The notes: generated by a model not told the origin, from the sequence alone. A stretch of DNA of 63,956 nucleotides, filler included, from Elsinoe ampelina (GCA_010093995.1; 11 parts of 11 records of this genome joined end to end with filler, not necessarily neighbours in it); one strand, 5' to 3'. Positions 3,009-58,190 are shown, counted from the first letter of the whole stretch. A program made the numbers and translations.

Positions 3009-5082
3009 ATGGCCGAACGCCTCACGATCCATCGTCGTCGGCGGAAAAACGGCGTACCTGATGGGTATCATGAACGCAACCGAATGAAACAGCCAGGGCA
3101 CTGAGCACCAGGCAACGTGCAGCAGTAGGTACATCCAGAAATCTCTCGAGTAGTTCGGATGTTTCTCGGTTGCACGGCGGATAGCAGATGCCACGGCTAC
3201 CCAACAGAGCGTGGCGTAGAGCGCGTGATACCATGCACCATCCCTGAACATGACGGAGTGGAGTCGGCGCAAGACGTTCGGACGACGAGATGGTTCCCTT
3301 TCCTTCATCGCCGGTCTTATTGAGCCTGTTGCGACAAATCGCATGACGGTCCCTCCGAGCCAACCGGGGAGCAAGATGGACTTGATGTGAGCAATGGTCC
3401 GGTCTGGTAGTGTCAGTATGTGATCGTATCACACCACGATGATCGCTTACATGGCGCCATCCAGGACTCATTGGCTGATGCTCTCATACAAAGACGATCT
3501 GTAGTCGCGAGAGATACGATCATAAGATCCATTCCGGTAGCGATGAATGCAGCGGCCGAAGCTCGTACCATTTTGGGTAGCTCATCGTCCTCGACCTGTG
3601 GCGCAAACGGCTTTCCTTGAAACAGCAGGATCAAGCTGACCCACATGTAGATGTTATTGATGATAAGTTTGATCTCTCTGAATGGCGGCAAGAACATATA
3701 CAATCTCTGTAGCAGTGTCATCTGTCGAGCTGATGCGCGGTCCAGGTACATATTCATGGCGAGACCAGATTGGATTGTGCCAACACTCTACACGCAGTCT
3801 GTCAGTCAATGCTCGTGACGCTGAACAGTCGACCTTACCCAACGTGTATACTGCTTCAAATGGCCGGTGAACGTTTCAGGCACGAGCCCATACTGGAGAG
3901 CTTCGGCCAGGTACGCAACATTCCAGCCCGCGCAGTATCATGCTGCTGAGGTGGACATCTTCGGACAGCGTCTGACCGGGAAAGCCTCCCACTTGGTGGA
4001 CCGCTTCCTTCTTTACTACGAAGCCGGATCCTGTGCACCAAGCACATCCTGCCATATCCTTGATAAGCTCTGCCCATTTGAAGGTGACGTTGAGGGTCTG
4101 CTGAAGAGGATCATTGACGGGCTGATTGTAGCAGCTCTGTAATCATGTCAGCTCAAATCGACCCTCGACGAAGAATCAAGACATACAGGAGGCGGATTGG
4201 TAAGAGCAAGGTTACTGTCAAGCAAGAAATGCGCCATGGATGATCTCAAGAATGTCTTCTCCGGAATCACATCGGCATCAAGGTTGGCAAAGAAGGGGAA
4301 GTGATCTCCAGGCAAATTGTCTGCGAAGGACATGGCGTGGTTGAGATTACTCGCTTTGTTGCGATTGTCTGGCGTTTTGATACGGGCGGTATAGCTCAGT
4401 GCCGGACCTAGGGCATCCTGCTGCAGGTTACTTATGGCACGTCGCAGCTCAGCTGAATCTCCGTCGTCGGTGACGGTGACTCTGAGTCGGTCGCTGGGGT
4501 AATCGAGATCGAGTGCAGCTCTGACGGTGTCAAGGATGATGTCAACATCCTCTCCGCAGCAAGCGATAACCAGATCAACGCCCGGAAGGTCTGCACCCAA
4601 AGCTAAGAGGCGTCTTCTCGGTCTACAGAGCAGGACTACCAGAGCGTCGACGATTGTTTTCATGCAGTCCGGAGCTATTCCCTGTCAGCCGGGCCGGTCA
4701 AGATGAACAGCCCAGACCTACCTAGGACGAGTAGCTCTACCACGGAGAAAGCGAGTCGCCACGAGTATCCGCTACGGTGCCACTGTGCGCCCATTGTGAG
4801 TACGTAGTAGTGAAGCTGAAGTGCCAGTGTCGCCATTCCAACGAATGGAAGGAGAGGCAGGAGGACAAGCTTGGCGAATCGGTTGATGGTCAACCAGTCT
4901 TTAGTATCGTTCTCAACGATCACACTCTGTCCGAGATTGTCGAGTTCTCCAGCGAACAGATCGGTTTTCTCGGGGAGCCAGCCGTCACTTGGCGATAACA
5001 AAGGAGACGCTGTGCGAGATGTGCCAGGTGTGAGGACAAGAAGCTGGCGCACAAGGCTAAGAACCCGCTTCCTACCCAGCAT
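3009..5082 (-). pseudogene. Processive glycosyltransferase family 2 (cellulose synthase-like) pseudogene, multi-exon
   Basis: DDG, KASNLN, DAD, CTGSG, SED and QYTRW (QxxRW) motifs; intron 4137-4186 and others; frameshift at ~3930; 3' end cut by the MULE. Confidence 0.85.
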
Positions 5083-8129: not shown

Positions 8130-8229
8130 NNNNNNNNNNNNNNNNNNNNNNNNNNNNNNNNNNNNNNNNNNNNTTAATTAATTAANNNNNNNNNNNNNNN
8201 NNNNNNNNNNNNNNNNNNNNNNNNNNNNN
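8130..8229. other. Artificial contig linker; also at 14877-14976, 21477-21576, 27932-28031, 33924-34023, 39706-39805, 45442-45541, 51145-51244, 56542-56641, 61854-61953
   Basis: Identical 100-bp N-run with a central six-frame stop TTAATTAATTAA; contigs sorted by length. Confidence 0.98.
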
Positions 8230-11200
8230 GCGTAGAGACGCTAGGACTAATTAAACTACTAGGGTTATTACGTGACCTAGCCCGACGTTTACCTAGTTCT
8301 CTATCTTCTCTAGTAGCTCTACCCCGGGGACTATAGAGTATATAGGTTACTAGCGGACGTGTACTCTATATTGCCCCTAACTCTCGCTATAGAGTATATA
8401 GAGTACATAGAGTACATAGTAAAAAACATATATATATAGGAGTAGTTCTTACCTTATATAAGTACTATAGTTAACCTCGTCTAGATAGCGAACACTAGTA
8501 TTACTAAGGCTAGCCTTTATAATACTATCTAATTGTACTTTATTATCTATAAGATATACCTTCTCTAACTCTTACCTTAGTACTATACTACTATAGAAGT
8601 AGAACTACCTTATTCTTAGCTTAGCTTAGACTACTAGTGTAGGCTATATTTAGACAGTTCGTAACATTTTAACTACCCTTACTATAGTATAGCACGCTAC
8701 GAGGTTAATAAGTAACTCTTGCTCTAAGTTACTATTAGCATCTTTAATCGCTAGTAAGCTAGGAAAGCTTACTATTAACGACATGTCTACTACTAGTTTA
8801 ACCTCGGGCAAACATAGAAGGTCTTTTAGTATAGAAGGACAGAGTAAGCCTAAGTTAGAAGTAGAACTCTTCTATAGGGACTACGCTTACTTAAGGCGCT
8901 TCCTTGTTTAACTTAAAGCCTTCTTTACCCTAGAGGGAGATAAGTACGCTAACGACGCAGCAAAGGTCCTCTATGCTAGGATACACCTTAAAGGCGCCGC
9001 CTTCGAGTAGTTTAAGCCTTATATAAGTAGCTACCTAGATAGATAACTAGGCCTAGATATAAAGGCTATTTTTAAGAGCTTTAGCATCTTCTAGGCAAAG
9101 ATTAAGCAAGTCTTTAACGTATCTAATAAGGAACGCGTCGCTATAATAAAGATCTAACAACTATAACAACGTAGGTCTATAGCCTAGTACTATTCCTAGT
9201 TCTAACAACTCGTAATGTATCTAGACTAGAACGATAGTACTAAACACTTAGTATTCTATTAAGGACTAAGCAACTTAGTTAAAAACTAAATAATACCCGA
9301 GCTGCCTAATAGCCTTTAGGAATTAGTAGATACTATAATTATTATCGACAATAGACTTTATAAACAACATATAGAACGTTATAGAGAATATAAGATAAAT
9401 ACTAGATATACGCGTTTCTCTCGAAACTATAGAGACCCTATAGAACTTAATACTATACGCGAAGGCTACCTCTTATAGGTACAAGGCTATAGCTATAGAG
9501 GAAAGTTCCTTAGTAGAAAAGAGAGAGAGAAGTATAGATAAGACAACTTATATTTTAAGTATAAAAGACCTAGGCATCGGGCTAGGGACTACTAACAAGA
9601 GGCGCTAGCCGATAGATTATATATAATAGTTGCTGGGCTAGTAGAGAAAAAGGCTAATACTACTATAGAAGACCTAACGACCTTTAGCGTAGGTAAGGAA
9701 ACATAGAAGAAGTCTATAATAACTCGAGAGGTAGTAGAATCCTCTCCGGATGTTATACTTAATATCTCTACAACTAATAGTAAATAACAAAGCTAATATA
9801 TAATGCTATTATAGATAGTATATTACAATAACTCTTGTTATATTTACTTATTAGACAAGTAGGGATCTAGTTAGTTCCTATATAAGCTGTCTAAGTATAG
9901 GCAACTAACAAAATAGCTAGACTAGAAACTCGACCTAGAAGAGCTCCCTATAATTAGTAGTAATAGTAACTAACCTTAAAAGGTAGTTAGTAACAATTAC
10001 TAATATACGATTATCGAGATGAAGTATTAGAACGTAAGTACTATATAATAATATAGTAGCCTTACCTTTAGCTCTTATAGCGAACTATAAGGAAAGGTAT
10101 ATTATATGTCGCTCTAGAAATGTACAAATCTAAATTATAAATAGTACTATACTATCTACTTACACGATGTACTTAGAGAAGAGACTATTAGTCTTAAATA
10201 CACTATAGACTTCTTAGTAATTAAAATAGATAGTACTATCCCCTATAGCTAAGTAAGAAAATATACTTAGTGTAGCCTTACTAACTATAACTATACTAGG
10301 GGTAGTAGCGACGAAGAGAAATATAACAAAGAATATACTAAATAACTATAATATAACAACATAGATAAGGACTTATCTAATAACAACAACGACGACAACA
10401 ATGTGCTACTACTAGGCAGACGACTTAAAGTATACCTTATAGGGATATAGAGGAATTATATAATAATATACACCTACTACTAGAATAGGACACGACAAGA
10501 TAAATCTATATAACTTGTTTTTGTCTTTAATGCTAACGCCTAGCTACACCTAGAAGAAATAGTTATACTAATATAGGTATATAACACTACTTAGTGTAAC
10601 TAGTAGAGAATTATTAGACTTTATAGTCACTAAGGGACTTAGGCGCTAGAAGTTTACCTTACTATATTAAATAGCGATAAAACACAACTTGCCTAATAGA
10701 TATAGTACTAATAGTAGATACGTGTAGAAAGGGATTAGCTACTTATCTAAGGAGCTATAATAACAAAAAACTAGCTAGTTGTCACCTAATAAGGCAAGAC
10801 AATAACACTAGCTAAAGCCTTAATATAATAAAGATCTACACGTTAAACTACTTTATACTAGAAGTTAAAATATAAGAGAGTAAGGTAAGAGTAATAATAG
10901 ATTCGGGAGCTAACTATAGCTACGTCTCTATAATAGTTACTAATTAGCTTAAACCTTATTAACACTAGAAGGAGTTACCTTACCTACTTACTATAGCAGA
11001 TAGAACCCCTATAGAAAAGAACAGAAAAGTCACTTAGGAACTATAAAATGTTATAATTAAAATTAAAATATATATAGAAAAACGATTAATCGATATAGTA
11101 GATATATAGTATAATATAGTACTTAGCATAGACTAGCTTTAATAACATAATCTAGACGTAGACTAGATTAAAGAAACACTTGAATTTCCTAAGTATAATT

Positions 11201-14200
11201 ATAGAACGTAGGGAGCATAATTAGCTCTGCGGATACTAACTATAAGAATAGTATAGATACGACTAATAGTTAGAGCTATCGCTAGCGTAAGTAATTAAGC
11301 ACTTCTACCGAAATATAAAGACTTCGAGGACTTATTTAAAGAAAGAAAAGATATTATAGCCTTACTCTAATATAAACTATAGAATTATAAAATACTCTTT
11401 AAAGAGAGTAAATCCCTAATACACTATTAAGGTCTTATACTACTATTAAAACAAGAGGAGAATATTCTTAAGGACTATATCGATAAGCACTTACTTAAAG
11501 GATTTATATAACTATTAAAATTACCTATTGCGCACGAAGTGCTTTTTATACCTAAAAAGGATAGGATGTTATAAATATGTATTAATTACTAGAAACTTAA
11601 TATACTTACTAGGAAGAATTACTATCCTCTACTAAGAATTAACAAACTTTAAGACTAACTACTTAGAGCTAAATAGTTTACTATAATTAATATTAGAGAC
11701 GCCTATTATTAAGTATAAATAAAGAAGAGTAAGAAGTAAAAGATAGCTTTTAGGACGTAATAGAGTCTATATAAGTACCTTGTTATACCCTTTAGGTTAA
11801 CTAACACTCCTATAACCTTCTAAGAGTTAATTAATAACACTCTATAAGAATACCTTAACAACTTTGTCTTAGCATATTTAGATAATATTATTATCTTCTT
11901 AAAGACGTATAATAAACATATAGGACATATTTATAAAGTGCTATAGAAACTAAAAGAAAAAGACCTACTAGTAAAGCTCTCTAAGTACAAGTTTTAAAAA
12001 CATAAGATACAATTTCTAAGCTATGTTATATCTACTAACAGCATCGGACCCGACCTAAAAAAGATTAAGTTAGTAAACGACTAGCTAGAACCTACTACAG
12101 TTAAGGAGGTTTAAGCGCTACTAGAGTTCTTTAACTACTACTATAAGTTTGTTAAAGAATTCTCTAAGGTAGCTACGCTAATATCTAACCTTATAAAGAA
12201 AGAAACTAGATTTATCTTCGATAAGAAATGTAAGTAGGCCTTTAAGGAGCTAAAGCTTAGACTTATAATAGTACCTATCCTAGCACTCTTCGACCTAGAC
12301 TAATAAGCACTACTAGAAACGGATGCCTTAGACTTTGTAATAGGAGCGTGTCTAGCGTAGAAGGACGCGGAAGAACAATACTACCTAATTGTATATTACT
12401 TACGAAAAATAACTAGACCTAAACTTAACTACGACATATACGATAAGGAGTTACTTGCGATTATAGAGGTATTCTACAAATAGAGAGTATACCTAGAAGG
12501 AACGACCTTACCTGTGTAAGTCTATACCGACTATAAGAACCTATTATATTAGACAATAACTAAGGTTCTTAATAGACAACAGGTTTAATAGTTAGAAACA
12601 CTTATAAGCTATAACTTTTAGATCTACTATGTTAAGGAATTAGAGAATAGTAGAGTAGATACTCTTAGCCGACAACTGGATTACTTAAAGAACATAATAA
12701 TAATAGAGGCCTCTATACTAAAGTAGTAAGATAGTGCTCTAGTCTATAAGCACCCGAAGGTAAAGTAGTTATATAGCCTTACCTAGGAGCTTACGTAAGA
12801 ATAGAAGAAAGAAGTTATTTAAATACACTATAATAACCTAATAGTAGAGCATAGTAGGATCGATAAGACTATTAAACTTATTATATAAAACTACCTATAG
12901 AAAGGACTCTAAAACGATATTAAGACGTATATTGCCGTATACGATATATGCTACAAGTCTAAGCACTTACGATACAAGCTATATAGCCTATTATAACCCT
13001 TACTACCACTAGATAAACTATAGCAATTAGTTACGATAGACTTTATAGGACCTTTACCGCTATTAGAAGAACCTCTTATAGGTATAAAGTATAATAGTAT
13101 CCTAGTCCTAGTAGATAGGTTTACGAAGTATTACTACTTTGTACTATATAAGACAATAGTAACTACCGAGGATATAGTCTTTACCTTCCTTCGAATAATT
13201 GTTTTATAATATAGAGTACTACGAGACCTAATAACTAATAGAGATAAGCTATTTACGTCACAATTCTAGTAATCATTTATAGATCTAATAGAAGTTAAAT
13301 ATAAGCTATTAACCTCCTTTTATCTATAGACGGACAGACAAACTAAATAGGCAAATTAAGTACTAGAGTAGTACCTACGATACTACCTAAACTATAAGTA
13401 AGACTTATAGGCGACGCTATTACTGCTCGTAGAGCTCGCTATTAATAATAGAAAGTTAGTAAATAGAATTTCACTATTCTACGTAAACTATAGAATATAC
13501 CCGGATCTACACTATAACATACTCAAAATTAAGCTAATATCTAAGGACGCTAACATACTAGTAGCTAATATTAAGAAACTATATAACTAGCTATACTACG
13601 ATATAGCATTTATATTACAAAGAATAGTAGAGTTTGCTAACTAGAAGAGAATTATAGGACTAATTCTATAGGAGGGAGAGAAAGTTTACCTCCTTAGTAA
13701 AAACATTAAAACGAAGTAACTAAGTAAGAAACTTAACTATACTAAGCTAGGACCCTTTAAGATCCTAGAAAAGAAAAACAAGAACGTATATAAACTAGAA
13801 CTACTAAGACATATAAGGATCTATCTAGTCTTTTATATATTACTACTAGAGAAAGCACTATAGAATACTATACCTAGACCTATCGAACTAGATAAAGAAA
13901 CATAAGAGCTATAGTACAAGATCGAAAGAGTTTTATATTATAAACTTATAAAAGGAAAACGCTACTATCTTATTTACTAGAAGGGACATTAGTATAGCGA
14001 AGTAATATAGGAACTAGAGGAGTACCTTACCTCGTAAGTAATTCTAGATTACTAGATCGAGAACCTATCCTAAGTAAACCGACTAGACGGACCTAGCACT
14101 CTAAACACTAAATAAAAACAAGGACGCCTAAGGAAGATTACTTAACTAATAGAAGCACCTTAATCGTTACTAAGTAAGAAACTCTAATCGGAGTTAGGCA

Positions 14201-14876
14201 TAAATAATTACTAGTTCTATAGTAGAATAGGATCTACTAATAATAGTATTTCCTTCTACTTTAAGACTTAAATATAAGTCTCTTCTAGAGAGATTACTTT
14301 CTCTACCTTGTCCTTTAACTTTTATATCTCTTCGCATAGGTAAAGCTTATTACCTATAGCTCTTTAATAAGCCTCTTTTGCCTTTTTATAAGCTTCTTTA
14401 GCTTCCTTTCTAGTAGCCTTAGCTATAACTAATTCCTTTCGTAAATAAATATACTTAGACTAGAGACACTACTATTCTAATTTTGTCACTTAAATATTAT
14501 AACCTAAGTAGTTACTCGCGATACACTAGCTATAAATACCTAACTGAATGTAGACTTTATAGTCTAACTCTTTTGACTTATAACAAAAGTAAGCTTATAG
14601 CATGTTAGTTCTAAATAATTTAATAAACTCCGAGAGGTTCTTTCGTGTAGATATACTAGATTCACTATACCTTTAACAACTAGGAGGCATGTTTAGTACA
14701 TAGCGCGTAAGGACAAGAAAGGATACTTACTTATTAGAACAACTCGATTAAGGGAGGAGAGTAATGTTATAAACTAGTAGGACAGCTAAAGCGTAGAGAC
14801 GCTAGGACTAATTAAACTACTAGGGTTATTACGTGACCTAGCCCGACGTTTACCTAGTTCTCTATCTTCTCTAGTA
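8230..14876 (+). mobile_element. Near full-length Ty3/gypsy chromovirus (family A), heavily RIPped
   Basis: 5' LTR ends 8666; gag ATG 8783; CCHC knuckle ~9550-9593; AAAAAAC slippery site ~10765; protease DSGA ~10900; RT YLD(D) ~11875; RNase H ETDA ~12316; integrase; chromodomain ~13910-14030; PPT; 3' LTR from 14765. Confidence 0.95.
14142..14690 (-). pseudogene. Antisense accessory ORF of gypsy family A (Zn2Cys6-like plus coiled coil), RIPped copy 1
   Basis: Colinear with 18245-18793; ATG and terminal stop conserved, 183 codons. Confidence 0.7.
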
Positions 14877-14976
14877 NNNNNNNNNNNNNNNNNNNNNNNN
14901 NNNNNNNNNNNNNNNNNNNNTTAATTAATTAANNNNNNNNNNNNNNNNNNNNNNNNNNNNNNNNNNNNNNNNNNNN

Positions 14977-17900
14977 AAGGAAATAAGGTAAGAGCAATAA
15001 TAGATTTAGGAGCTAACTATAGCTACGTCTCTATAACAGTTGCTAATTGGCTTAAACCTTATTAACATTAGAAGGAGTTACCTTACCTACTTACTATAGC
15101 GGATAGAACCCCTATAGGGAAGAACGGGAAAGTTACTTAGGAACTACGAAACGTTACAATCTAAATCGGAACACACACGGAAAGACGATCGATCGACATA
15201 GTTAATATGTAGTACGATATGGTACTCGGCATAGACTAGCTTTAACAACATAATCTAGACGTGGACTGGATTAAAGAAACACTCGAATTCCCTAAGTGCA
15301 ATTATAGGACGTAGGGAGTACGATTAGCCCTGCGGATACTAACTATAAAGACAGTATAGGTACGACTAATAGTTAGGGCTATCGCTAGCGTAAGCGATTA
15401 AGCACTTCCGCCGGAATATAAAGACTTCGAGGACTTGTTCAAAGAAAGGGAAGGCATCGTAGCCTTGCCCTAACATAAACTATAGGATTACGAAATACCT
15501 TTTAAAGAGGGTAAATCCCCGACACACTATTAAGGTCTTATACTACTATCGAAACAAGAGGAGGACGTCCTTAAGGACTATATCGACAAGTACTTACTTA
15601 AAGGATTTATACGACTATTAAAATCACCTATTGCGCACGGAGTGCTTTTTGCACCTAAAAAGAATAGGACGTCACGAATATACATTAATTACCGGAAACT
15701 CAATACACTCACTAGGAAGAATCGCTATCCCCTACTAAGGATCGACGAACTTTAAGACCGACTACTTAGAGCTAAATAGTTCACCGTAATCGACATTAGG
15801 GACGCCTATTATTAAGTACGAATAAAGGAAGGCAAGGAGTGGAAAACGGCTTTTAGGACGTAATAGGGTCTATACGAGTACCTCGTTATGCCCTTTAGGT
15901 TAACTAACGCTCCCGTAACCTTCTAAGAGTTAATTAACAACACTCTACAAGAATACCTTAACGACTTTGTCTTAGCATATTTAGACGATATTGTTATCTT
16001 CTTAAAGACGTACGATAAACACGTAGGACATGTTCGTAAAGTGCTACAGAAACTAAAAGAAAAAGACTTACCGGTGAAGCTCTCTAAGTGCGAGTTTTAT
16101 AAACACAAGATACAATTTCTGGGCTATGTTATATCTACCGACAGTATCGGACCCGATCTAAGGAAGATCGAGTTAGTAAACGACTAGCCGGAACCTACAA
16201 CGGTCAAGGAGGTTTAAGCGCTACTAGGATTCTTTAACTACTACTGCAAATTTGTCGAAGGATTCTCTAAGGTAGCTACGCTAATATCTAACCTCACGAA
16301 AAAGGAAACTAGCTTTGTCTTCGACGAAGATTGCAGGCAGGCCTTTAAGGAGCTAAAGCTTAGGCTTACGACAGCACCTGTCCTAGCACTCTTCGACCTA
16401 GACCGATAAGCACTGCTAGAAACGGATGCCTCGGACTTTGCGATAGGAGCGTATCTAGCGTAGAAGGACGCGGAAGGACGACGCTGCCTAATCGCATACT
16501 ACTCACGAAAAATGACTAGACCTGAACTTAACTACGACATACACGACAAGGAATTACTCGCGATCGTAGAAGCGTTCCGCGAATAGAGAGTATACCTAGA
16601 AGGGACGACCTCACTAGTACAAGTCTACACCGACCATAAGAACCTTCTATATTGGACAATAACTAAGGTTCTTAACAGACGACAGGTTCGATAGTTAGAA
16701 ACACTTGCAAGCTGCAACTTTTAGATCTACCATGTTAAGGGATCAGAGAACAGCGGAGCGGACGCTCTTAGCCGACGACCGGACTACTTAAAGAACATGA
16801 CAATAATAGAGGCCTCTATGCTAGAGTAGCAAGACGGCGCTTTAGTCTATAAGCACCCGAAGGTAGAGCAGTTATGTAGCCTCACCTAGGAGCTTACGTA
16901 AGAACAGAAAAAAGAAGTCATTCGAATACACTATAATAACCTAACGGCGGGACATGGCGGGATCGACAAGACTATTGAACTTATTACACGAAACTACCTC
17001 TAGAAAGGACTCCGAAACGATGTTAAGACGTACGTCGCCGCATGCGATATGTGCCACAAGTCTAAACACTCTCGACATAAACTATACAGCCTACTACAAC
17101 TATTGCCACCACCGGACAAACTATGGCAATCAGTTACGATAGACTTTATAGGACCTCTACCGCTATTAGAAGAGCCCCTCACGGGTGCAAAGTACGACAG
17201 CATTCTAGTCCTAGTGGATAGGTTTACGAAATATTGCTACTTCGTACCACACAAGACAACAGCAACCGCCGAGGATATAGCCTTTGCCTTCCTTCGAACA
17301 ATTGTTTTACGACACAGAGTACCACGAGACCTAATAACCGACAGGGATAAGCTATTCACGTCACAATTCTAGCAATCATTTGTGGACTTACTAGGAGTCA
17401 AACATAAGCTATTAACCTCCTTTCATCCGCAAACGGACGGACAAACTAAACGGGCAAATTAAGTACTAGAGCAGTACCTACGATGCTACCTAAACTACGA
17501 GTAGGACTCATGGGCAACGCTATTACCGCTCGCAGAGCTCGCCGTCAACAACAGAAAGTTAGCGAACGGAATTTCACTATTTTACGCAAACTATAGAATA
17601 TACCCGGATCTACACCACGACACACTCGGAATTAAGCTAATATCTAAGGATGCTAACATACTAGTAGCTAACATTAAGAAACTACACGACTAGCTACACC
17701 ACGATATGGCATTTATATCATAAAGAATAGTAGAGTTTGCCAACCAGAAGAGAATTGCAGGACCAATTCTACAGGAGGGGGAGAAAGTTTACCTCCTTAG
17801 CAAAAACATTAAAACGAAACGACCGAGCAAGAAACTCGACTACACTAAACTAGGACCCTTTAAGATCCTAGAAAAGAAAAACGAGAACGTATACAAACTG

Positions 17901-19330
17901 GAACTACCGAGACATATGAGGATCTATCTAGTCTTTTATATATCACTACTAGAGAAAGCACTATAGAATGCCGTACCTGGACCCATCGAACTAGATAAGG
18001 AAACACAGGAGCCACGGTACGAGATTAAAAGAGTTTTACGCTATAAACTCATAAAAGGAAAACGCTACTATCTTATTCACTGGAAGGGACATTAGTATAG
18101 CGAAGCAACATAGGAACTAGAGGAGCACCTTACCTCGCAAGTAATCCTAGATTACTAGATCGAGAACCTATCCTAAGCAAACCGACTAGACGGACCCGGC
18201 ACTCCTAACACCGAACGAAAACGAGGACGCCTAAGGAGGATCGCTTAGCTAACAGGAGCACCTTGATCGTTGCTAAACAGAGAACCCTAGTCGGAGTCAG
18301 GCATAAATAATCGCTGATCCCACAGTAGGACGGGATCCACCGACGACAGCATTTCCTCCTGCTCTAGGACTCGAATGCGAGTCTCCTCTAGAGAGATCGC
18401 TTCCTCCGCCTCATTCTCTAATTTCTGCATCTCTTCGCGTAGGCGAAGCTTATCGCCTACAGCTCTTTAACGAGCCTCTTTCGCCTTTTTACGAGCCTCT
18501 TTAGCTTCCTTTCTAGCAGCCTTAGCTGTAACTAATTCCTTTCGCAAACAAATGTGCTTAGACTAAAGACGCTACCATTCCGATTTTGTCACCCGAATGT
18601 TACAACCCGAGTAGTTACTTACGACACACTGGCTATAGATACCCGACCGAACATAGACCTTGTAATCTAGCCCCTTCGATTTGCAACGAGAATAGGCCTA
18701 CGGCATGTTAGTTCCGAACAGTTCGATAAACTCCGAGAGATTCTTTCGTGCGGATGTGCTAGATTTACTATGCCTTCGACGACTAGGAGGCATGTTTAGT
18801 GTATAGCGCGTAAAGACAAGGAGGGATACTTACTCGTTAGGACAACTCGATTAAAGGAGGAGAGTAATGTTACGAACCAGTAGGACAGCTAGAGCGCAGG
18901 GACGTTAGGACCAACTAAACCGCTAAGGTTATCACGTGACCTGGCCCGACGTTTACCCGGTTCTCTGTCTTCTCTGGCGGCTCTACCCTAGAGACTACAG
19001 AGCACGCAGGTTACTAGCAGACATATACTCTGTGCTGCCCCTGGCTTTCGCCACGAAGCACACAGAGCACACAGAGTACGCGATGGAGAACACATGCATA
19101 TAGGAACAGTCCTTACCTCATGTAAGTACTGTAGTTAACCTCGTCTAGATAGCGAACACTAGTATTGCCAAGGCTGGCCTTTGCAATACTATCCAATTGT
19201 ACTTCATTATCTGTAAGACATACCTTCTCCGACTCTTACCTTAGTGCTATACTGCTATAGAAGCAGAACTACCTCGTTCTTAGCTTAGCTTAGACCACTA
19301 GCGTGGGCTGTGTTTAGACGGTTCGTGACA
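14977..19330 (+). mobile_element. Second copy of gypsy family A (pol plus complete 463-bp 3' LTR 18868-19330), more lightly RIPped
   Basis: YLDDIVI ~15978; ETDASD ~16418; integrase ORF 17049-17372; LTR TGTTACGAACC...GGTTCGTGACA; aligns to contig 2 at offset 4103. Confidence 0.95.
18245..18793 (-). pseudogene. Antisense accessory ORF of gypsy family A, copy 2
   Basis: MPPSRRRH...A(Y/C)SRCKSKGLD(Y/C)KVYVRSGI(Y/C)SQCVVSNYSGCNI...KAARKEAKEARKKAKEAR...; all internal stops are TAG/TAA explicable by RIP. Confidence 0.75.
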
Positions 19331-19918
19331 AGGAGGTCCTTGCTAGAGTAGTGCTATAGACAAGTTAGCGGCAAAGAACACCCTCGATAAGGTCGACACC
19401 TACAGCGCGGAGAATAGCGGCAACGTCCTCGATAGCAAGGCGTAGGCCACGCATTTTGGCAACCTTAGCGCGCTCTAAGTCCTCCCCCTAGAGAGAGGCA
19501 ATGTTAGCACTAGCGCGAGCGTCCTACATGCCCTTAGTCTGCTTACGTTCCTTGACGAGGTTCATGGCCTCAATGTACTCGTTAGTGTAGCAGTTGCGCT
19601 TCTCGATAGATACGAGGTTAGCGGGGTCCTAGGAGACATAGTCGCGGTACTAGATGGCGCCGTAGGCGTTATTGACGCGGTCCAGCAGAATAGCGTCGTC
19701 GATGTTATAGCAAGCGACCTTCGCGTGCTTATAGCGGGCGCAAGTCTCGGTGACCCCTAGGTCGCGGTCATAGGGGGCATCTAGCGAATGTTAGTAGCGC
19801 CTCTAGAGGACTACTAGCGGGGTGCCGGAGACTTACCGATTATATCCCCGACGTAGTTGCTGTAGTGGTAGCAAGGGGTAATACGCGGTGGCAGCGCCCG
19901 AGAAGCCCTAGGAGCTAT
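19331..19918 (-). pseudogene. Intron-containing antisense Zn2Cys6-like accessory ORF of family B
   Basis: (M)APRASRALPPRITPCYH(Y/C)SNYVGDII, intron 19781-19836 (GTAAGT..TACTAAC..TAG), then DAP(Y/C)DRDLGVTETCAR(Y/C)KHAKVAC...; second intron ~19354-19403; cut by the family A insertion. Confidence 0.7.
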
Positions 19919-20729
19919 AGTGCTTGCTAAGGTGTTCGAGAAGCTATGTATAGGGAGGACTAACGTATTAGGGCGCGAGAGGTGCCTATATAGGCGCGTT
20001 CTGTTTACTACACAACACAACAAACACGGAAGGTGAATCCACACGCGTCGCCGTCTCCTAGGAGGTAGTAGTGTTATTCAAGGATTGATGTTATAAAGTG
20101 TCGATGTGCGACACTTGCTCGGGACCTCCGAGGGGGTTCTACGCAGTAAACGAACTAATCCTACACGTTTGCTAAAGCGCTAGTTGTTTCTTAAAGCAAC
20201 GAATGCTTTAGCTTGCAATGCAAAGAACAGCCATTAGAGGAGAGCCACGTTTGCCTTGATATATCAGTGTCGTCGGCAAATAAAGGCATGACGGATGTAG
20301 AGAGTAAACAAAGAAGCTAAGTTCTTCCCCTATGCAAGGAATGCTAACCTACCCTCATAGGAGAGGCCTATGACAGCGATCAGAGGCCTACGAAGGATGC
20401 GGTTCAATCGAGGGCGATTGAATACAGAGGGGGAATAATTGTAGGGGAGACTCGGTATGCGGCTCCGGCTGAGTCTGTCACGTGACGAACCCTCTCCAGC
20501 TGCCTTCCGTACGGCCTCCTGCCGCCACGAACAAAGGCAGCTATTAGTTTATCCATCTATCTAGCTTGTGGATATCGGTGGTTCTATACGTTGCTACACA
20601 CCTACCCTTATAATACGTGTAGACTTTTACTTAAGTATTATTCGTACTACTAATCGAGAGCTATCCTTACACTACTACAAGCTGATTATTATATATACTT
20701 ACTAGTATTAATATAATCTACCCCTAATA
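19331..20729 (+). mobile_element. 3' part of another LTR element (family B): PPT ~20426-20439 and LTR ~20440-20729
   Basis: AGAGGGGGAATAAT followed by TGTAGGGG...CCCCTAATA; the last ~100 bp recur at 58770-58869; no pol is visible. Confidence 0.6.
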
Positions 20730-20997
20730 GCCTACGTTACGTGACGGGACTATCCTAGAGCTATAGGACTAAGCATCCCCTTATACGTAATACTATCATT
20801 ATAAAGACATAAGGAACATAGATATTTATAAGGAGAAACTTAGTCCTATAGCTCTAGGATAGCTCTATCCCGTGACGTAGGCTCTCTATAGTATGTCTAT
20901 ATAGCCTCTGCTCTCTCGGCTATTTATATAAAGGTAGCTATTAGTTTATCCTTCTATCTAGTCTATAGACATCGTTAGTTCTATACATTGCTATACG

Positions 20998-21184
20998 TGT
21001 AAGGGCACGGCATTAGGGCGGCACTTGGTAGCGGCTAGTCCCACTTACGTGACGCACCTAGATATCCTACGCGGAGCTTGCGCCTAGGGCTTAACAGCAA
21101 TTAGTTCTACTACTAACGGACTGTTCGGTTAGATAGGCGTTCTCTATATTGCGACATACGTAGCTTTAATACAAGGCTTTAACA
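20998..21184 (+). mobile_element. Solo LTR (family C) with 5-bp target-site duplication ATACG, inside an older family-B-like LTR ending ~21268
   Basis: TGTAAGGG...TTTAACA flanked by ATACG at 20993-20997 and 21185-21189; reverse complement of 35647-35833. Confidence 0.9.
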
Positions 21185-21268
21185 ATACGCCTACTATTAC
21201 ATCTACAATACTAGTATAAGCTAATTGTTATATATACTCACTAGTAATAATATAACCTATTCCTAATA

Positions 21269-21349
21269 TAGAAGCCTATACTATAGGCTTAAATTACGTA
21301 ATAAATCTAACCTATATCCTAACTAGATCTAGTTTGTTTCTATCTCGTA
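21269..21349 (-). mobile_element. Terminal segment of a family-D-like LTR abutting 28S rDNA
   Basis: Aligns along its length to the LTR end at ~34482-34561. Confidence 0.65.
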
Positions 21350-21350
21350 C

Positions 21351-21476
21351 TTAGTTTTACCCTACTGATAACCGTCGCCCTAATGGTAATTCCGCTTAGT
21401 ACGAGAGGAACCGCGGATTCAGATAATTGGTTTTTGCGGCTGTCCGACCGGGCAGTGCCGCGAAGCTACCATCTGC
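21351..21476 (+). rRNA. 28S rRNA fragment (interrupted copy)
   Basis: Reverse complement of 45542-45667 except two RIP-type transitions. Confidence 0.93.
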
Positions 21477-21576
21477 NNNNNNNNNNNNNNNNNNNNNNNN
21501 NNNNNNNNNNNNNNNNNNNNTTAATTAATTAANNNNNNNNNNNNNNNNNNNNNNNNNNNNNNNNNNNNNNNNNNNN

Positions 21577-54122: not shown

Positions 54123-55752
54123 ATGCCCTCGATACCATTGAAAAGGACGTCGACTGCCGAACGGAGTGTATCTCCGCCACCAACAAAGCGGAGGAGTGTA
54201 TCGACCGCGACAGCACCACAACTCGAGCAGAACGGCAAGAATGTCACGACGACAACCAGCGGAGCCCTGAGAAAGGTTGCAAGTACTACGAATAGTAAGA
54301 CCTCATTGGAGTCCCACTCACATTTACCCCGCATGCTGACCGCTAGCAGAGAAGCTGGTCCAGAACTTCTTCGCAAAGGCGTCGGAGAAAGCACCTGAAA
54401 GGACAAAGTGGGATCAGATCGGAAATTCGCTCTATATTTGTCGCTACGACAAGGTGGACGAACACAAACATGTCAGACCGCGCAAGGTTGCCCTCTTCGA
54501 CTTTGTACGCGAGCTCTCCCTGAAGCATGTCGTATCATGCTCCATATTCTGACATGGACGCAGGATTCCACTCTGGTTATAACACAATCTGGCAAGAAGT
54601 TCGGCCGCGAAGCAGGAGACTGGACCTGGTGGCACAGTAGTGTTGAGCAGAAGCTCAAGCAGTTGGTCCATGATGGGTATCTTGTTTGTATCATCAGCAA
54701 CCAAGCTGGTCTCAAAGCTCCGGATGCGAAGACGAAAGCACCCACAGCCGCGCTGAACAAGAAGACGTCCGAATGGAAGCAGAAGGTCAAGGCTGTTCTG
54801 GATGTCTTGGACTTGCCGATCACTCTGTACGCCGCCAGAGACCACGACACATATCGAAAGCCACGAATAGGGATGTGGGAGCAACTGCTCAAAGACCACG
54901 ATCTTCATGCCGCAGATATCGACATGAATGGATCTATCTTTGTGGGAGACGCCGCCGGACGCATAGCTGGGCCCATGGGAGGTAAGGACTTTTCGTGCTC
55001 AGACAGAGATTTTGCCACGAACGTGGGCATTCCGTTCAAGACGCCGGAGGAGTACTTCCTTGGTCAAGAAGAGCGGCCGTGGACACGAAACCTTGAGCCG
55101 AGCAAGTATCTCGACACGATCAACAACAGCAAGACGGATGAGAGTGAGTGCACCCGAGCAGGACAATGGGCGGAAGACTGACAAAACCAGGCCCCATAGT
55201 TTTCACCAAGAAGAATAATCAAGATATCATTCTCTTCGTCGGTAGTCCAGGAGCGGGCAAGTCATCTTTCTTCTGGCGCCATCTCGAGCCATTAGGCTAC
55301 GAGCGAGTCAATCAGGACATACTTGGTTCGGTACGTTGAATCTGCCCTGCCTGAGAATTCGCTGACAATGTCAGCGAGACAAATGCCTTCGTCGAGCTAC
55401 AGAGTATCTCACAGAAGGTCAATCCGTCGCCGTTGACAATACGAATGCCGACATGGACGTTCGCAAAGCTTGGCTCGATCTCGCAGCCAAACACAATGTG
55501 CCGGTTAGGGTCGTGCTATTCACTGCTTCACCGAAGCTTTGTGAACACAATGACACAGTCAGAGCGCTCGGCGGGATCAAGATGAACCCGGAGAGCAGGA
55601 CGATGTTGCCGAAGATGGCTTTCTCGGGGTTTGCAGGGAGGTACGTAGAGCCTTCGGTCAGGGAAGGTTTCCAGGATATCACCAAGGTGGACTTTCGATT
55701 CGAGGGCGGCGAGGTAGAGAGGAAGATTTGGGGGAGGTTCTGGATTACTTGA
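54123..55752 (+). CDS. PNK1: Polynucleotide kinase 3'-phosphatase, multi-exon
   Basis: DFDST across an intron, ISNQAG, RKPRIGMW, FVGDAAGR, FSCSDR, GSPGAGKS, VNQD, VDNTN. Confidence 0.93.
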
Positions 55753-56541: not shown

Positions 56542-56641
56542 NNNNNNNNNNNNNNNNNNNNNNNNNNNNNNNNNNNNNNNNNNNNTTAATTAATTAANNN
56601 NNNNNNNNNNNNNNNNNNNNNNNNNNNNNNNNNNNNNNNNN

Positions 56642-58190
56642 TCCCAGTCAGCTCACTGTGTCGACCTTGACCGGAGGTTTCACAGGCGTGATCGAACCCG
56701 CCTTCCCATCAACCCGGCAGTTCCGCTCGATTCCCTTCGCAGAACCTCCTGTAGGATCACGCCGCTGGCTGCCACCACAAAAACTCTCCGCTTCAGACGG
56801 TCACCGCTGGTCGACCAAGTTTCCGCCATCCTGCCCTCAGTTTGTCTCGGGGGTCGACATCTTCTGGAACTCCAATCTCACCAAAGGCAACTTGATCTAC
56901 AATGGCGCCCAGAATGATACTTCTGGACTCATAGGAGAGGCCACATCTGAAGACTGCCTGCAGCTCGCAGTATGGACACCCACGATCGAGAACATACCAG
57001 CGGAAGGTCTGCCTGTACTGTTCTTCATGACTGGTGGCGGCTTCGTCATGGGCGGTGTGGAATTGCCATGGCAGATACCTGTGTCTTGGGTCGATCGGTC
57101 CAAGTCGCACATCGTCGTGAGCATCAACTATCGAGTGAGCATATTCGGCTTTCCTGGCGCTCGTGGTTTGTCGGACCAAAACCTTGGGATACTCGATCAG
57201 CGTGTAGCTCTCGAATGGGTCCGCGACAACATTGCAGCCTTCGGCGGCGATCCGGATCGCATCACCCACTGGGGCAGGTCGGCAGGAGCCATCAGTGCGG
57301 ACATACACACATATGCATACTACGATGATCCGGTTGCCCAGGCCTACTACATTGAATCAGGCACTGTGTTCAGCGGCGGTGGGGTCCCCGCCCCGACCTT
57401 CTCCAACTTTTCGTTCGTGGCTCAGCATGTCGGATGCGCCTCTCCATGCGGTAGCCAGGCATGCAATGCGGAAGACTATGCTGCGGCTGAACTCGACTGC
57501 ATGCGTCAAGTGTCTCCAATCCAGATCATCAATTTCATCGGACAGTACGCAGACCGTGGGCAGGCACCGCCTTTGGCCTTTGGTTTGTCTGCAGATGAGC
57601 GGATCGTCTTCAGCGACTACGCCGCGCGATCAGAGGCCGGTCTGATTGCTAGGAGACCGACCATGATCTCATATACCGCCAACGAGTTCTCCTCGCTCGT
57701 GCCATGGCCTGTAAATTTGACAGAAGGTCCTGATCAAGCACTTGTCACTGCCGGGACTGTCACTTTTGGAGTATGTGCGACCTACAACTCGACTGCCTAC
57801 CGCAATCAATTGAGTCCTGACGTGCCGGTCTACCGCTTCCAGTACGCTGCAGAGTTCCCCAACCTGAACGTGTATGACTGGCTTGGTGCGTATCACAACA
57901 GTGAAACGCCACTGATCTTCGGCGCGTACGATTAGCTCAATGGTATCGCAAATACGACCCAGTACCAGGACGAAGTGAGCCGGGCAATGCAGGACCGCAT
58001 TTTGGCATTTGCCCAAGACCCATTCAATGGTCCACAAACACTTGGATGGCAGGCCTCGGTGACCAGCGATCCGAATGGCGGAAGCCTACTCCGATTTGGA
58101 GGCTGCAGTGGCCAGGTCGTCCAACAAATCACTGGGAATGAGGTGGACAATATGTGCAGAGGTACCGGAGAGTACAACTCATTTCCTTGA
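56642..58190 (+). CDS. Type-B carboxylesterase/lipase, 5' partial, with premature TAG at 57933-57935
   Basis: IPFAEPP, SEDCL, GGGF, NYR, FGGDPDRIT, GRSAG, GAYHNSE; the reading frame continues after the stop to 58190. Confidence 0.9.

Follow-up and report, generated by a model that had tools for sequence, protein, structure and literature searches.

Boty-like Ty3/gypsy retrotransposons carry an extra gene, brtn, which is said to have been described by Zhao et al. in 2011 (Virology 417:248). In the passages of later papers that refer to it, brtn is an antisense gene located between pol and the 3′ long terminal repeat (LTR) of Boty-like elements of Botrytis cinerea/Sclerotinia (PMC7264820, PMC8365987, PMC4227169, PMC5987419), and the part of a 2020 review that deals with antisense open reading frames (ORFs) at this position gives their function as not known (PMC7264820). 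For plants, the pertinent part of another account lists PMD, transposase-28 and coiled-coil domains in the antisense ORFs of Tat/Retand elements (PMC4408406). Reports of antisense extra ORFs in gypsy elements of plants and fungi go back decades, and a literature search, with subscription journals mostly outside its coverage, found no zinc cluster or function assigned to any fungal antisense retrotransposon ORF. Here we analyse a stretch of 63,956 nt from Elsinoe ampelina (GCA_010093995.1), hereafter the window, which holds two copies of a chromodomain-bearing Ty3/gypsy element damaged by repeat-induced point mutation (RIP), each with an antisense extra ORF (aORF). The aORF is a RIP-damaged member of a genuine protein family, and it represents an additional gene that a lineage of ascomycete Ty3/gypsy chromoviruses really carries, opposite in strand to gag-pol. 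For fungal gypsy elements, an antisense gene in this location is already in print as brtn; the zinc-cluster assignment proposed below goes beyond the cited descriptions of brtn, to the extent that these treat the gene.

The antisense frame is a damaged member of a protein family

The sequence-only reading of this DNA had reported a 183-codon minus-strand frame in both element copies, with its ATG and stop conserved. The frame was found as reported in the better-preserved copy (copy 2) and in the more heavily RIPped one (copy 1; Table 1), with ATG codons at 18791-18793 and 14688-14690 and terminal TAA codons at 18245-18247 and 14142-14144, and in copy 2 the stops of the aORF and of pol (TAG, 18246-18248) overlap. 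The frame is interrupted, with five internal stops in copy 2 (TAG, TAG, TAG, TAA, TAG), all of which recur among the 16 of copy 1. Stop counts do not single this frame out (6 versus 8 and 8 in copy 2, 17 versus 15 in copy 1) and are still not discriminating when the unmutated base is taken from either copy, which would suit a chance frame in a RIP-mutated spacer, or a region conserved as a cis-acting signal of the sense strand. The RIPped translation gave only a chance match to DUF2514 and no Zn_clus in Pfam, a word-indexed protein search returned nothing, and a 41-residue open piece gave only leads under 0.9 in the Atlas.

We then turn to homology, which separates the frame from chance as stop counts cannot. 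When the X-masked translation was searched with phmmer against 1.84 billion representative proteins, 86 matches had E ≤ 1e-3, and of these 23 had E ≤ 1e-10; the top match had an E of 3.9e-32 and 48% identity over residues 6-148. Six cysteines spaced C-x2-C-x6-C-x8-C-x2-C-x6-9-C (pattern C..C.{5,7}C.{7,9}C..C.{6,9}C) were present in 57 of the 86, and the family alignment comprised 51 of these 57 plus the window row, with the short or irregular P0033, P0039, P0048, P0051, P0062 and P0077 omitted. A family profile made without the window row, run against the six-frame translation of the window, recovered the frame in both copies, at 18293-18796 (minus strand) with an i-E of 2.1e-39 and at 14229-14693 (minus strand) with an i-E of 2e-10, and gave nothing else in the window below an E of 1. 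The explanation by chance or by a sense-strand signal is already refuted, and we give it practically no weight. Six long phmmer matches (P0010, P0012, P0044, P0054, P0078 and P0084) were rejected as bacterial repeat proteins and chance matches.

Members of the family are about 150-210 residues long. The N-terminus is short and basic/Ser-rich and is followed by a helix (consensus MP..SST.RR..L..FI..FG..MP..C), and the cysteine cluster contains the nearly invariant C[KR]VH[VI]RSG[RK]C. After the cluster come VT.sEW.RL, a K/E/A/Q-rich stretch of variable length, a second helix segment (E.RLRkQL..LE.RA.EAI.VE...I.E.E) and a C-terminal tail, LALSP.TWs..DGlpd.FW. One relative, P0002, falls in unnamed Ascomycota clusters of 140, 122 and 62 members in the Atlas; the family is widespread in ascomycetes and almost unannotated. 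Apart from one protein discussed below, the names in the sources are ‘hypothetical protein’, and P0103, P0106 and P0107 have been labelled automatically, and wrongly, with names such as ‘septal ring factor EnvC’ or ‘multidrug efflux pump subunit AcrA’, presumably on account of the helical part.

The six Cys positions of copy 2 are occupied by the codons TAT, TGC, TAC, TAT, TGT and TGT, so that the cluster reads Y..C......YKVYVRSGIY..C.......C. The earlier statement that three Cys remain and three have become Tyr holds for this copy and fails for copy 1, which retains one Cys of six, and the spacing that it restored, C-x2-C-x6-C-x8-C-x2-C-x7-C, is exactly that of the intact relatives. In these, Cys stands at the window's Tyr codons and His at the Tyr of KVYVRSG, and in two places a window stop faces Gln in P0002 and Trp in L002, a metagenome locus described below. 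The Tyr-for-Cys and Tyr-for-His changes and the two stop changes are each one RIP-type transition away. Both window copies are RIP-inactivated pseudogenes with no function. Four sequencing runs, presumed to be RNA, gave no cover on the aORF, and one contig touched only the LTR (19252-19330).

Relatives carry the intact gene at the same place in the element

A scan of metagenome contigs gave 18 loci, and the ORF is intact in 17 of them (152-208 codons) and broken in L018, which is a further argument against a chance frame. At 14 of the 18 loci (L002-L015), tblastn with the window pol as query placed a gypsy pol on the opposite strand, tail-to-tail with the ORF, and the C-terminal end of this pol lies from ∼40 nt inside the ORF end to ∼250 nt beyond it. 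The identity to the window pol is 38-64% across these loci; the closest is L002 (64.5%), whose pol has the full domain set including Chromo. Conservation of the ORF among gypsy elements this far apart upholds the earlier proposal that the antisense gene is encoded by the element. L001 and L018 are contigs of ∼1 kb, too short for element context to be judged.

As the sequence-only reading had placed it, the window aORF lies between the chromodomain and the polypurine tract (PPT), and the extra gene occupies the space from the end of pol to the PPT. Upstream of the ATG, the same order is kept in 13 distinct loci and in the window: the LTR end (...GTAACA), the complement of the PPT, a short hairpin and the ATG. 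The distance from the ATG to the LTR edge is 44-104 nt in the 13 loci and 74 nt in the window, which would fit an LTR promoter for the aORF. In the usage of PMC7264820, aORF-3R denotes an ORF that lies antisense in the interval from pol to the 3′ LTR, and this is the arrangement in the window and at 14 of the 18 loci; moreover, the ORF is found in most copies and is conserved approximately as other element proteins are.

At L016 (4673-7086) and L017 (7563-9976) there is a 2.4-kb unit with 330-bp flanking direct repeats (95% identical), a gag fragment and an intact ORF, and with no pol. This unit looks like a non-autonomous derivative that retains the extra gene.

The contigs of L005, L010, L013 and L015 have identical ends of 123-174 nt, and in L002 gag (L002:3-1073) lies directly past a single LTR. 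Assembly thus gave these elements as one-LTR circles, which could be collapsed repeats or true extrachromosomal circles. In that form the LTR lies between gag and the extra gene, which point away from it on either side.

Selection on the antisense gene and its identity relative to pol

Synonymous change is unsaturated in one pair only, L013 and L015, which differ by 45 synonymous and 19 non-synonymous changes over 130.5 and 433.5 sites, respectively (dN 0.045, dS 0.46, dN/dS 0.098), and 11 further pairs have pN of 0.12-0.45 against a saturated pS of 0.70-0.85. These values support purifying selection on the aORF, and because the overlap with pol amounts to a few tens of bases at most, the constraint acts on the aORF protein itself. 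The sequence-only reading had named dN/dS and intact relatives as checks on its proposal, and both came out on the side of a gene; a dN/dS of 0.10 is again not what a chance frame would give. Over the same 36 pairs, identity is 0.33-0.90 for the aORF and 0.36-0.96 for the integrase-chromodomain part of pol, and the two correlate with a Spearman coefficient of 0.54, the pairs being non-independent. The aORF and pol disagree to some degree in L003 and L004, perhaps through exchange between elements.

Conservation as strong as that of pol, at this dN/dS, is what is expected of a replication factor. One alternative is that the product is not a transcription factor and instead serves replication as an accessory protein, for example as a tether or adaptor of the pre-integration complex or virus-like particle or as a nucleic-acid chaperone; its Cys cluster would bind RNA or protein, and its tail motif would serve to bring in integrase or a host factor. 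The C-terminal LALSPfTWs..DGLpd.FW, which is well conserved and docking-peptide-like, is in keeping with this, whereas the pol-less element keeps the ORF intact beside a gag fragment only. We hold such a role to be unlikely, though far from negligible.

A putative Zn2Cys6-type module followed by a helix

Zn_clus (PF00172) is defined by C-x2-C-x6-C-x5-12-C-x2-C-x6-8-C. The family has this six-Cys spacing in 57 of the 86 matches, nearly all of these with x2, x6, x8, x2 and x6-9, and copy 2 in the window has it with Tyr codons at three of the six positions. Zn_clus was also the most frequent of the weak Pfam matches among the 52 members (21 of 52 at E ≤ 1, best E 0.0026), followed by DUF5651 (10 of 52) and DUF3716 (2 of 52), and UniRef names P0092 a ‘Zn(2)-C6 fungal-type’ protein. 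No member of the family reached the Pfam gathering cut-off; P0028 scored 15.0 bits against the Zn_clus cut-off of 21.

The AlphaFold2 model of P0002, made with the 52-row alignment, has a mean pLDDT of 86, a confidence that also argues against a chance frame. In it, residues 17-31 form one helix, the Cys region has two short ones, residues 75-159 form a single helix and the tail is of low confidence; a helix had been predicted to follow the cluster. Foldseek with the whole model gave 32 matches, none at E ≤ 1e-3, and the best 24 of the 32 were all Zn2Cys6 proteins; with a 70-residue model of the domain (pLDDT 81.5), all 18 rows were Zn2Cys6 DNA-binding domains (best E 0.21). The Atlas structural neighbours of P0002 outside the family are Zn(2)-C6 clusters with TM values of 0.23-0.32. 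Sequence-profile searches of the PDB returned coiled-coil noise for the whole family and nothing significant for the domain alone. A homodimer prediction with two chains and four zinc ions scored 0.08 against a mark of 0.32, which speaks neither for nor against binding. In the conserved helix segments, hydrophobic residues recur with 3-4 spacing (consensus W..L......L...I and L...L..L...A..AI.V....I), and this fits a coiled coil.

Judging from the spacing and the predicted structures, we consider it likely that the cluster and the helix after it correspond to those of Gal4-class DNA-binding domains, the cluster being a divergent module of the Zn2Cys6 type, with scores that stay sub-threshold. 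The earlier description as Zn(II)2Cys6-like is weakly supported by the spacing, by the UniRef name and by fold searches in which the matches listed are all Zn2Cys6 proteins, and is not upheld by any significant sequence or structure score; similarly, comparison with Zn_clus and structure prediction, both proposed by that reading, yielded frequent weak matches and a confident model, and every match fell below its cut-off.

Several observations weigh against a regulator of the Gal4 type. In canonical Zn2Cys6 clusters a Pro two residues before the fourth Cys is usual, if not universal, and the family instead has a nearly invariant R-S-G-[RK]-C there. The variable K/E/A-rich middle of the helix could form a single stable helix and not a coiled coil. 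Furthermore, no conserved CGG-Nx-CCG site was found in the six LTRs examined, and this result, together with the sub-threshold Zn2Cys6 membership, counts in favour of an accessory replication protein. Against that alternative, the structural neighbours of the domain, among the matches listed, are all DNA-binding proteins in which a Zn2Cys6 module is followed by a helix, as here.

Signals in the LTR and beside the polypurine tract

What the six LTRs do have in common is a TATATA box, together with short tandem repeats and with TCACGTGA boxes. In the distantly related LTRs of L002, L005, L008, L013 and L015, the TATATA box is accompanied by tandem GTGATCAGT/CTGAGCA repeats and by one or two TCACGTGA near the start of U3. 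The window LTR retains ATCACGTGAC, with one CACGTG box at 18933.

In a per-sequence search of L001-L016, a perfect hairpin of 5-8 bp with the loop TCC(T/C) was found beside the PPT in 10 of 14 sequences. Counted inwards from the edge of the 3′ LTR, it is 16-24 nt into the element (∼18825-18850 in the window, where it is degraded), and its stem varies by element (CTTGCG, AGCTTCG, AGCGCTG, AGCTTTG). The mean best stem is 5.9 bp compared with 3.1 bp in shuffles, and RNAalifold predicted no pairs in the PPT-adjoining region, the arms being out of register. Two sites of action are conceivable for the hairpin, the 5′ untranslated region of the antisense mRNA and the PPT-proximal part of the genomic RNA. 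Its conservation is the one feature besides the stop counts that favours a sense-strand signal as the source of the conserved region, the explanation refuted above.

Layout of the window and the two element copies

The window consists of eleven pieces joined by ten identical 100-bp linkers (N44-TTAATTAATTAA-N44), and neighbouring pieces may not be neighbours in the genome. Because the two gypsy copies are on separate linker-joined pieces, their genomic adjacency is not supported. The two ends of the copy-1 piece (8230-8315 and 14791-14876) are identical over 86 nt, both inside the LTR, which shows the piece to be one element assembled in circularly permuted, LTR-collapsed form, with a size of ∼7.0 kb when both LTRs are counted. 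Copies 1 and 2 can be aligned over 3,992 bp with 84% identity. Over the final 881 bp there are 173 transitions, one transversion and no indels between them, and 152 of the differences are C>T or G>A in copy 1, the more mutated copy. RIP indices, which are usually read against set thresholds, are 1.92/0.27 for copy 1 and 1.73/0.56 for copy 2, compared with 0.79/1.14 for genic DNA. The pol of copy 2 has 39 internal stops (read as X) and the domains RVT_1, RNase H, integrase, SH3_Tf2-1 and Chromo.

Table 1. Coordinates of the element copies, the antisense gene and the linkers, counted from the first letter of the window
Feature	Position	Strand	Remarks
Linkers	8130-8229, 14877-14976, 21477-21576		seven more sites
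Piece with copy 1	8230-14876		single RIP-mutated Ty3/gypsy element
LTR part, copy 1	8230..8666	+	start of the copy-1 piece
Copy-1 part aligning to copy 2	10881..14872	+	pol, aORF region, PPT, start of 3′ LTR
aORF, copy 1	14142..14690	-	more heavily RIPped
Piece with copy 2	14977-21476		starts inside pol, runs through the 3′ LTR into flanking DNA
pol remnant, copy 2	14985..18248	+	5′ side cut by the piece boundary
pol chromodomain	18018..18140	+	Pfam Chromo, pol residues 1012-1052
aORF, copy 2	18245..18793	-	better preserved; 182 codons + stop
C-terminal tail motif	18275..18340	-	acidic/aromatic; DPVLLWDQRLFMPDSDxGSLF, as in L002
Long helix	18356..18583	-	amphipathic conserved start EW.RL; K/E/A-rich spacer of variable length; second segment RLR..m..Le..aeEAi.lEE
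Six-Cys cluster region	18602..18694	-	C1-C6 codons; family signature C[KR]VH[VI]RSG[RK]C
N-terminal conserved segment	18701..18763	-	SST.RK.L..FI..FG..MP; helix in the model of P0002
PPT	18853..18864	+	AAAGGAGGAGAG; 59 nt past the aORF start codon
3′ LTR	18868..19330	+	inverted ends TGTTACGAACC/GGTTCGTAACA

Some short repeats, 84-98% identical, are common to different pieces of the window (7489-7725/44717-44954, 21351-21476/45542-45667, 21000-21189/35641-35831 and 20627-20729/58767-58869) and are probably fragments of other transposons. Pieces of normal GC content carry ordinary host genes at 39830-41965 (-), 51388-52077 (-), 54399-55181 (+), 56598-57935 (+) and 4148-4684 (-), namely those for arginyl-tRNA synthetase, aldehyde dehydrogenase, polynucleotide kinase 3′-phosphatase, a carboxylesterase and a family-2 glycosyltransferase. 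None of 17 window ORFs examined is a Zn_clus gene.

A proposed role for the product

We favour, with moderate confidence, the reading that the window frame is the RIP-dead copy of an antisense element gene for a minimal Gal4-type regulator, which would most plausibly act on the LTR. The layout of the protein would be that of such a regulator reduced to its minimum, with a zinc cluster, a linker, a coiled-coil dimeriser and an activation-like tail. An antisense mRNA of the aORF would be driven by the 3′ LTR, as the sequence-only reading had also proposed; the product would enter the nucleus and bind zinc and, as a dimer, DNA, most plausibly the element's own LTR, and would in this way tune element transcription, either by activation or by restraint.

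Regulation may instead be aimed at the host or at rival copies, with the putative DNA-binding protein acting as an anti-silencing factor, which the sequence-only reading had raised, or as a copy-number brake, for which HBZ acting against Tax in human T-cell leukaemia virus type 1 (HTLV-1) and p22 of Ty1 offer parallels. The same evidence from the protein architecture would apply, and the antisense position suggests a product made when sense transcription is opposed, whereas the acidic/aromatic tail appears more activation-like than repressor-like. We regard this alternative as quite improbable.

Returning to the LTR-acting regulator, a more far-reaching version can be put forward tentatively, as one that we would doubt rather than expect: a lineage of ascomycete chromoviruses may encode its own antisense Gal4-type factor, which is expressed from the 3′ LTR and binds the LTR, so that in the one-LTR form the LTR would be a two-way promoter for gag and the aORF and the factor would switch the element between sense transcription and quiescence. 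If true, this factor would be the equivalent of HBZ in fungi, with a zinc cluster, and no antisense extra ORF of an LTR retrotransposon would have been given a functional class before it. The architecture of the family points to a concrete and testable activity, that of a predicted zinc-cluster DNA-binding protein on the LTR. It also matters for annotation: such ORFs are masked with the repeats, and some members may be counted as host transcription factors, because one already carries the zinc-cluster name in UniRef.

Comparison with known systems

In the passages that describe it, brtn is like the present gene in being an extra gene, in its antisense orientation, in its place between pol and the 3′ LTR and in belonging to a fungal gypsy element with a chromodomain, a comparison made by description only; as a difference, the descriptions that cite brtn do not mention a zinc cluster in the parts that concern the gene. 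The name BRTN was absent from the match lists and from the 30 clusters that were looked up. The antisense ORFs of plant Ty3/gypsy elements (Grande, RIRE2, Retand, Tat) share with the aORF their position, orientation and conservation within a family and, in some cases, a coiled coil, according to the relevant parts of PMC7264820 and PMC4408406; they differ in that the domains named there are PMD and transposase-28 and not a Cys6 cluster, and in that they belong to non-chromovirus lineages.

The Gal4-type Zn(II)2Cys6 domains (PF00172: GAL4, HAP1, PPR1, PUT3, LEU3) have the same six-Cys spacing followed by a linker and a helix, and they are the only structural neighbours of the aORF domain among the matches listed. 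However, the scores are below every significance threshold and Ser-Gly replaces the usual Pro. Moreover, the aORF protein is tiny, has no fungal_trans middle region, and is encoded by a retrotransposon and not by a host gene. With respect to layout, an analogue is found in an animal retrovirus: HBZ of HTLV-1, a small dimerising DNA-binding bZIP protein, has its gene on the minus strand, with transcription from the 3′ LTR. The likeness of the aORF to HBZ would be an analogy of layout alone, with no homology, HBZ being a bZIP protein and the aORF product a putative zinc-cluster protein.
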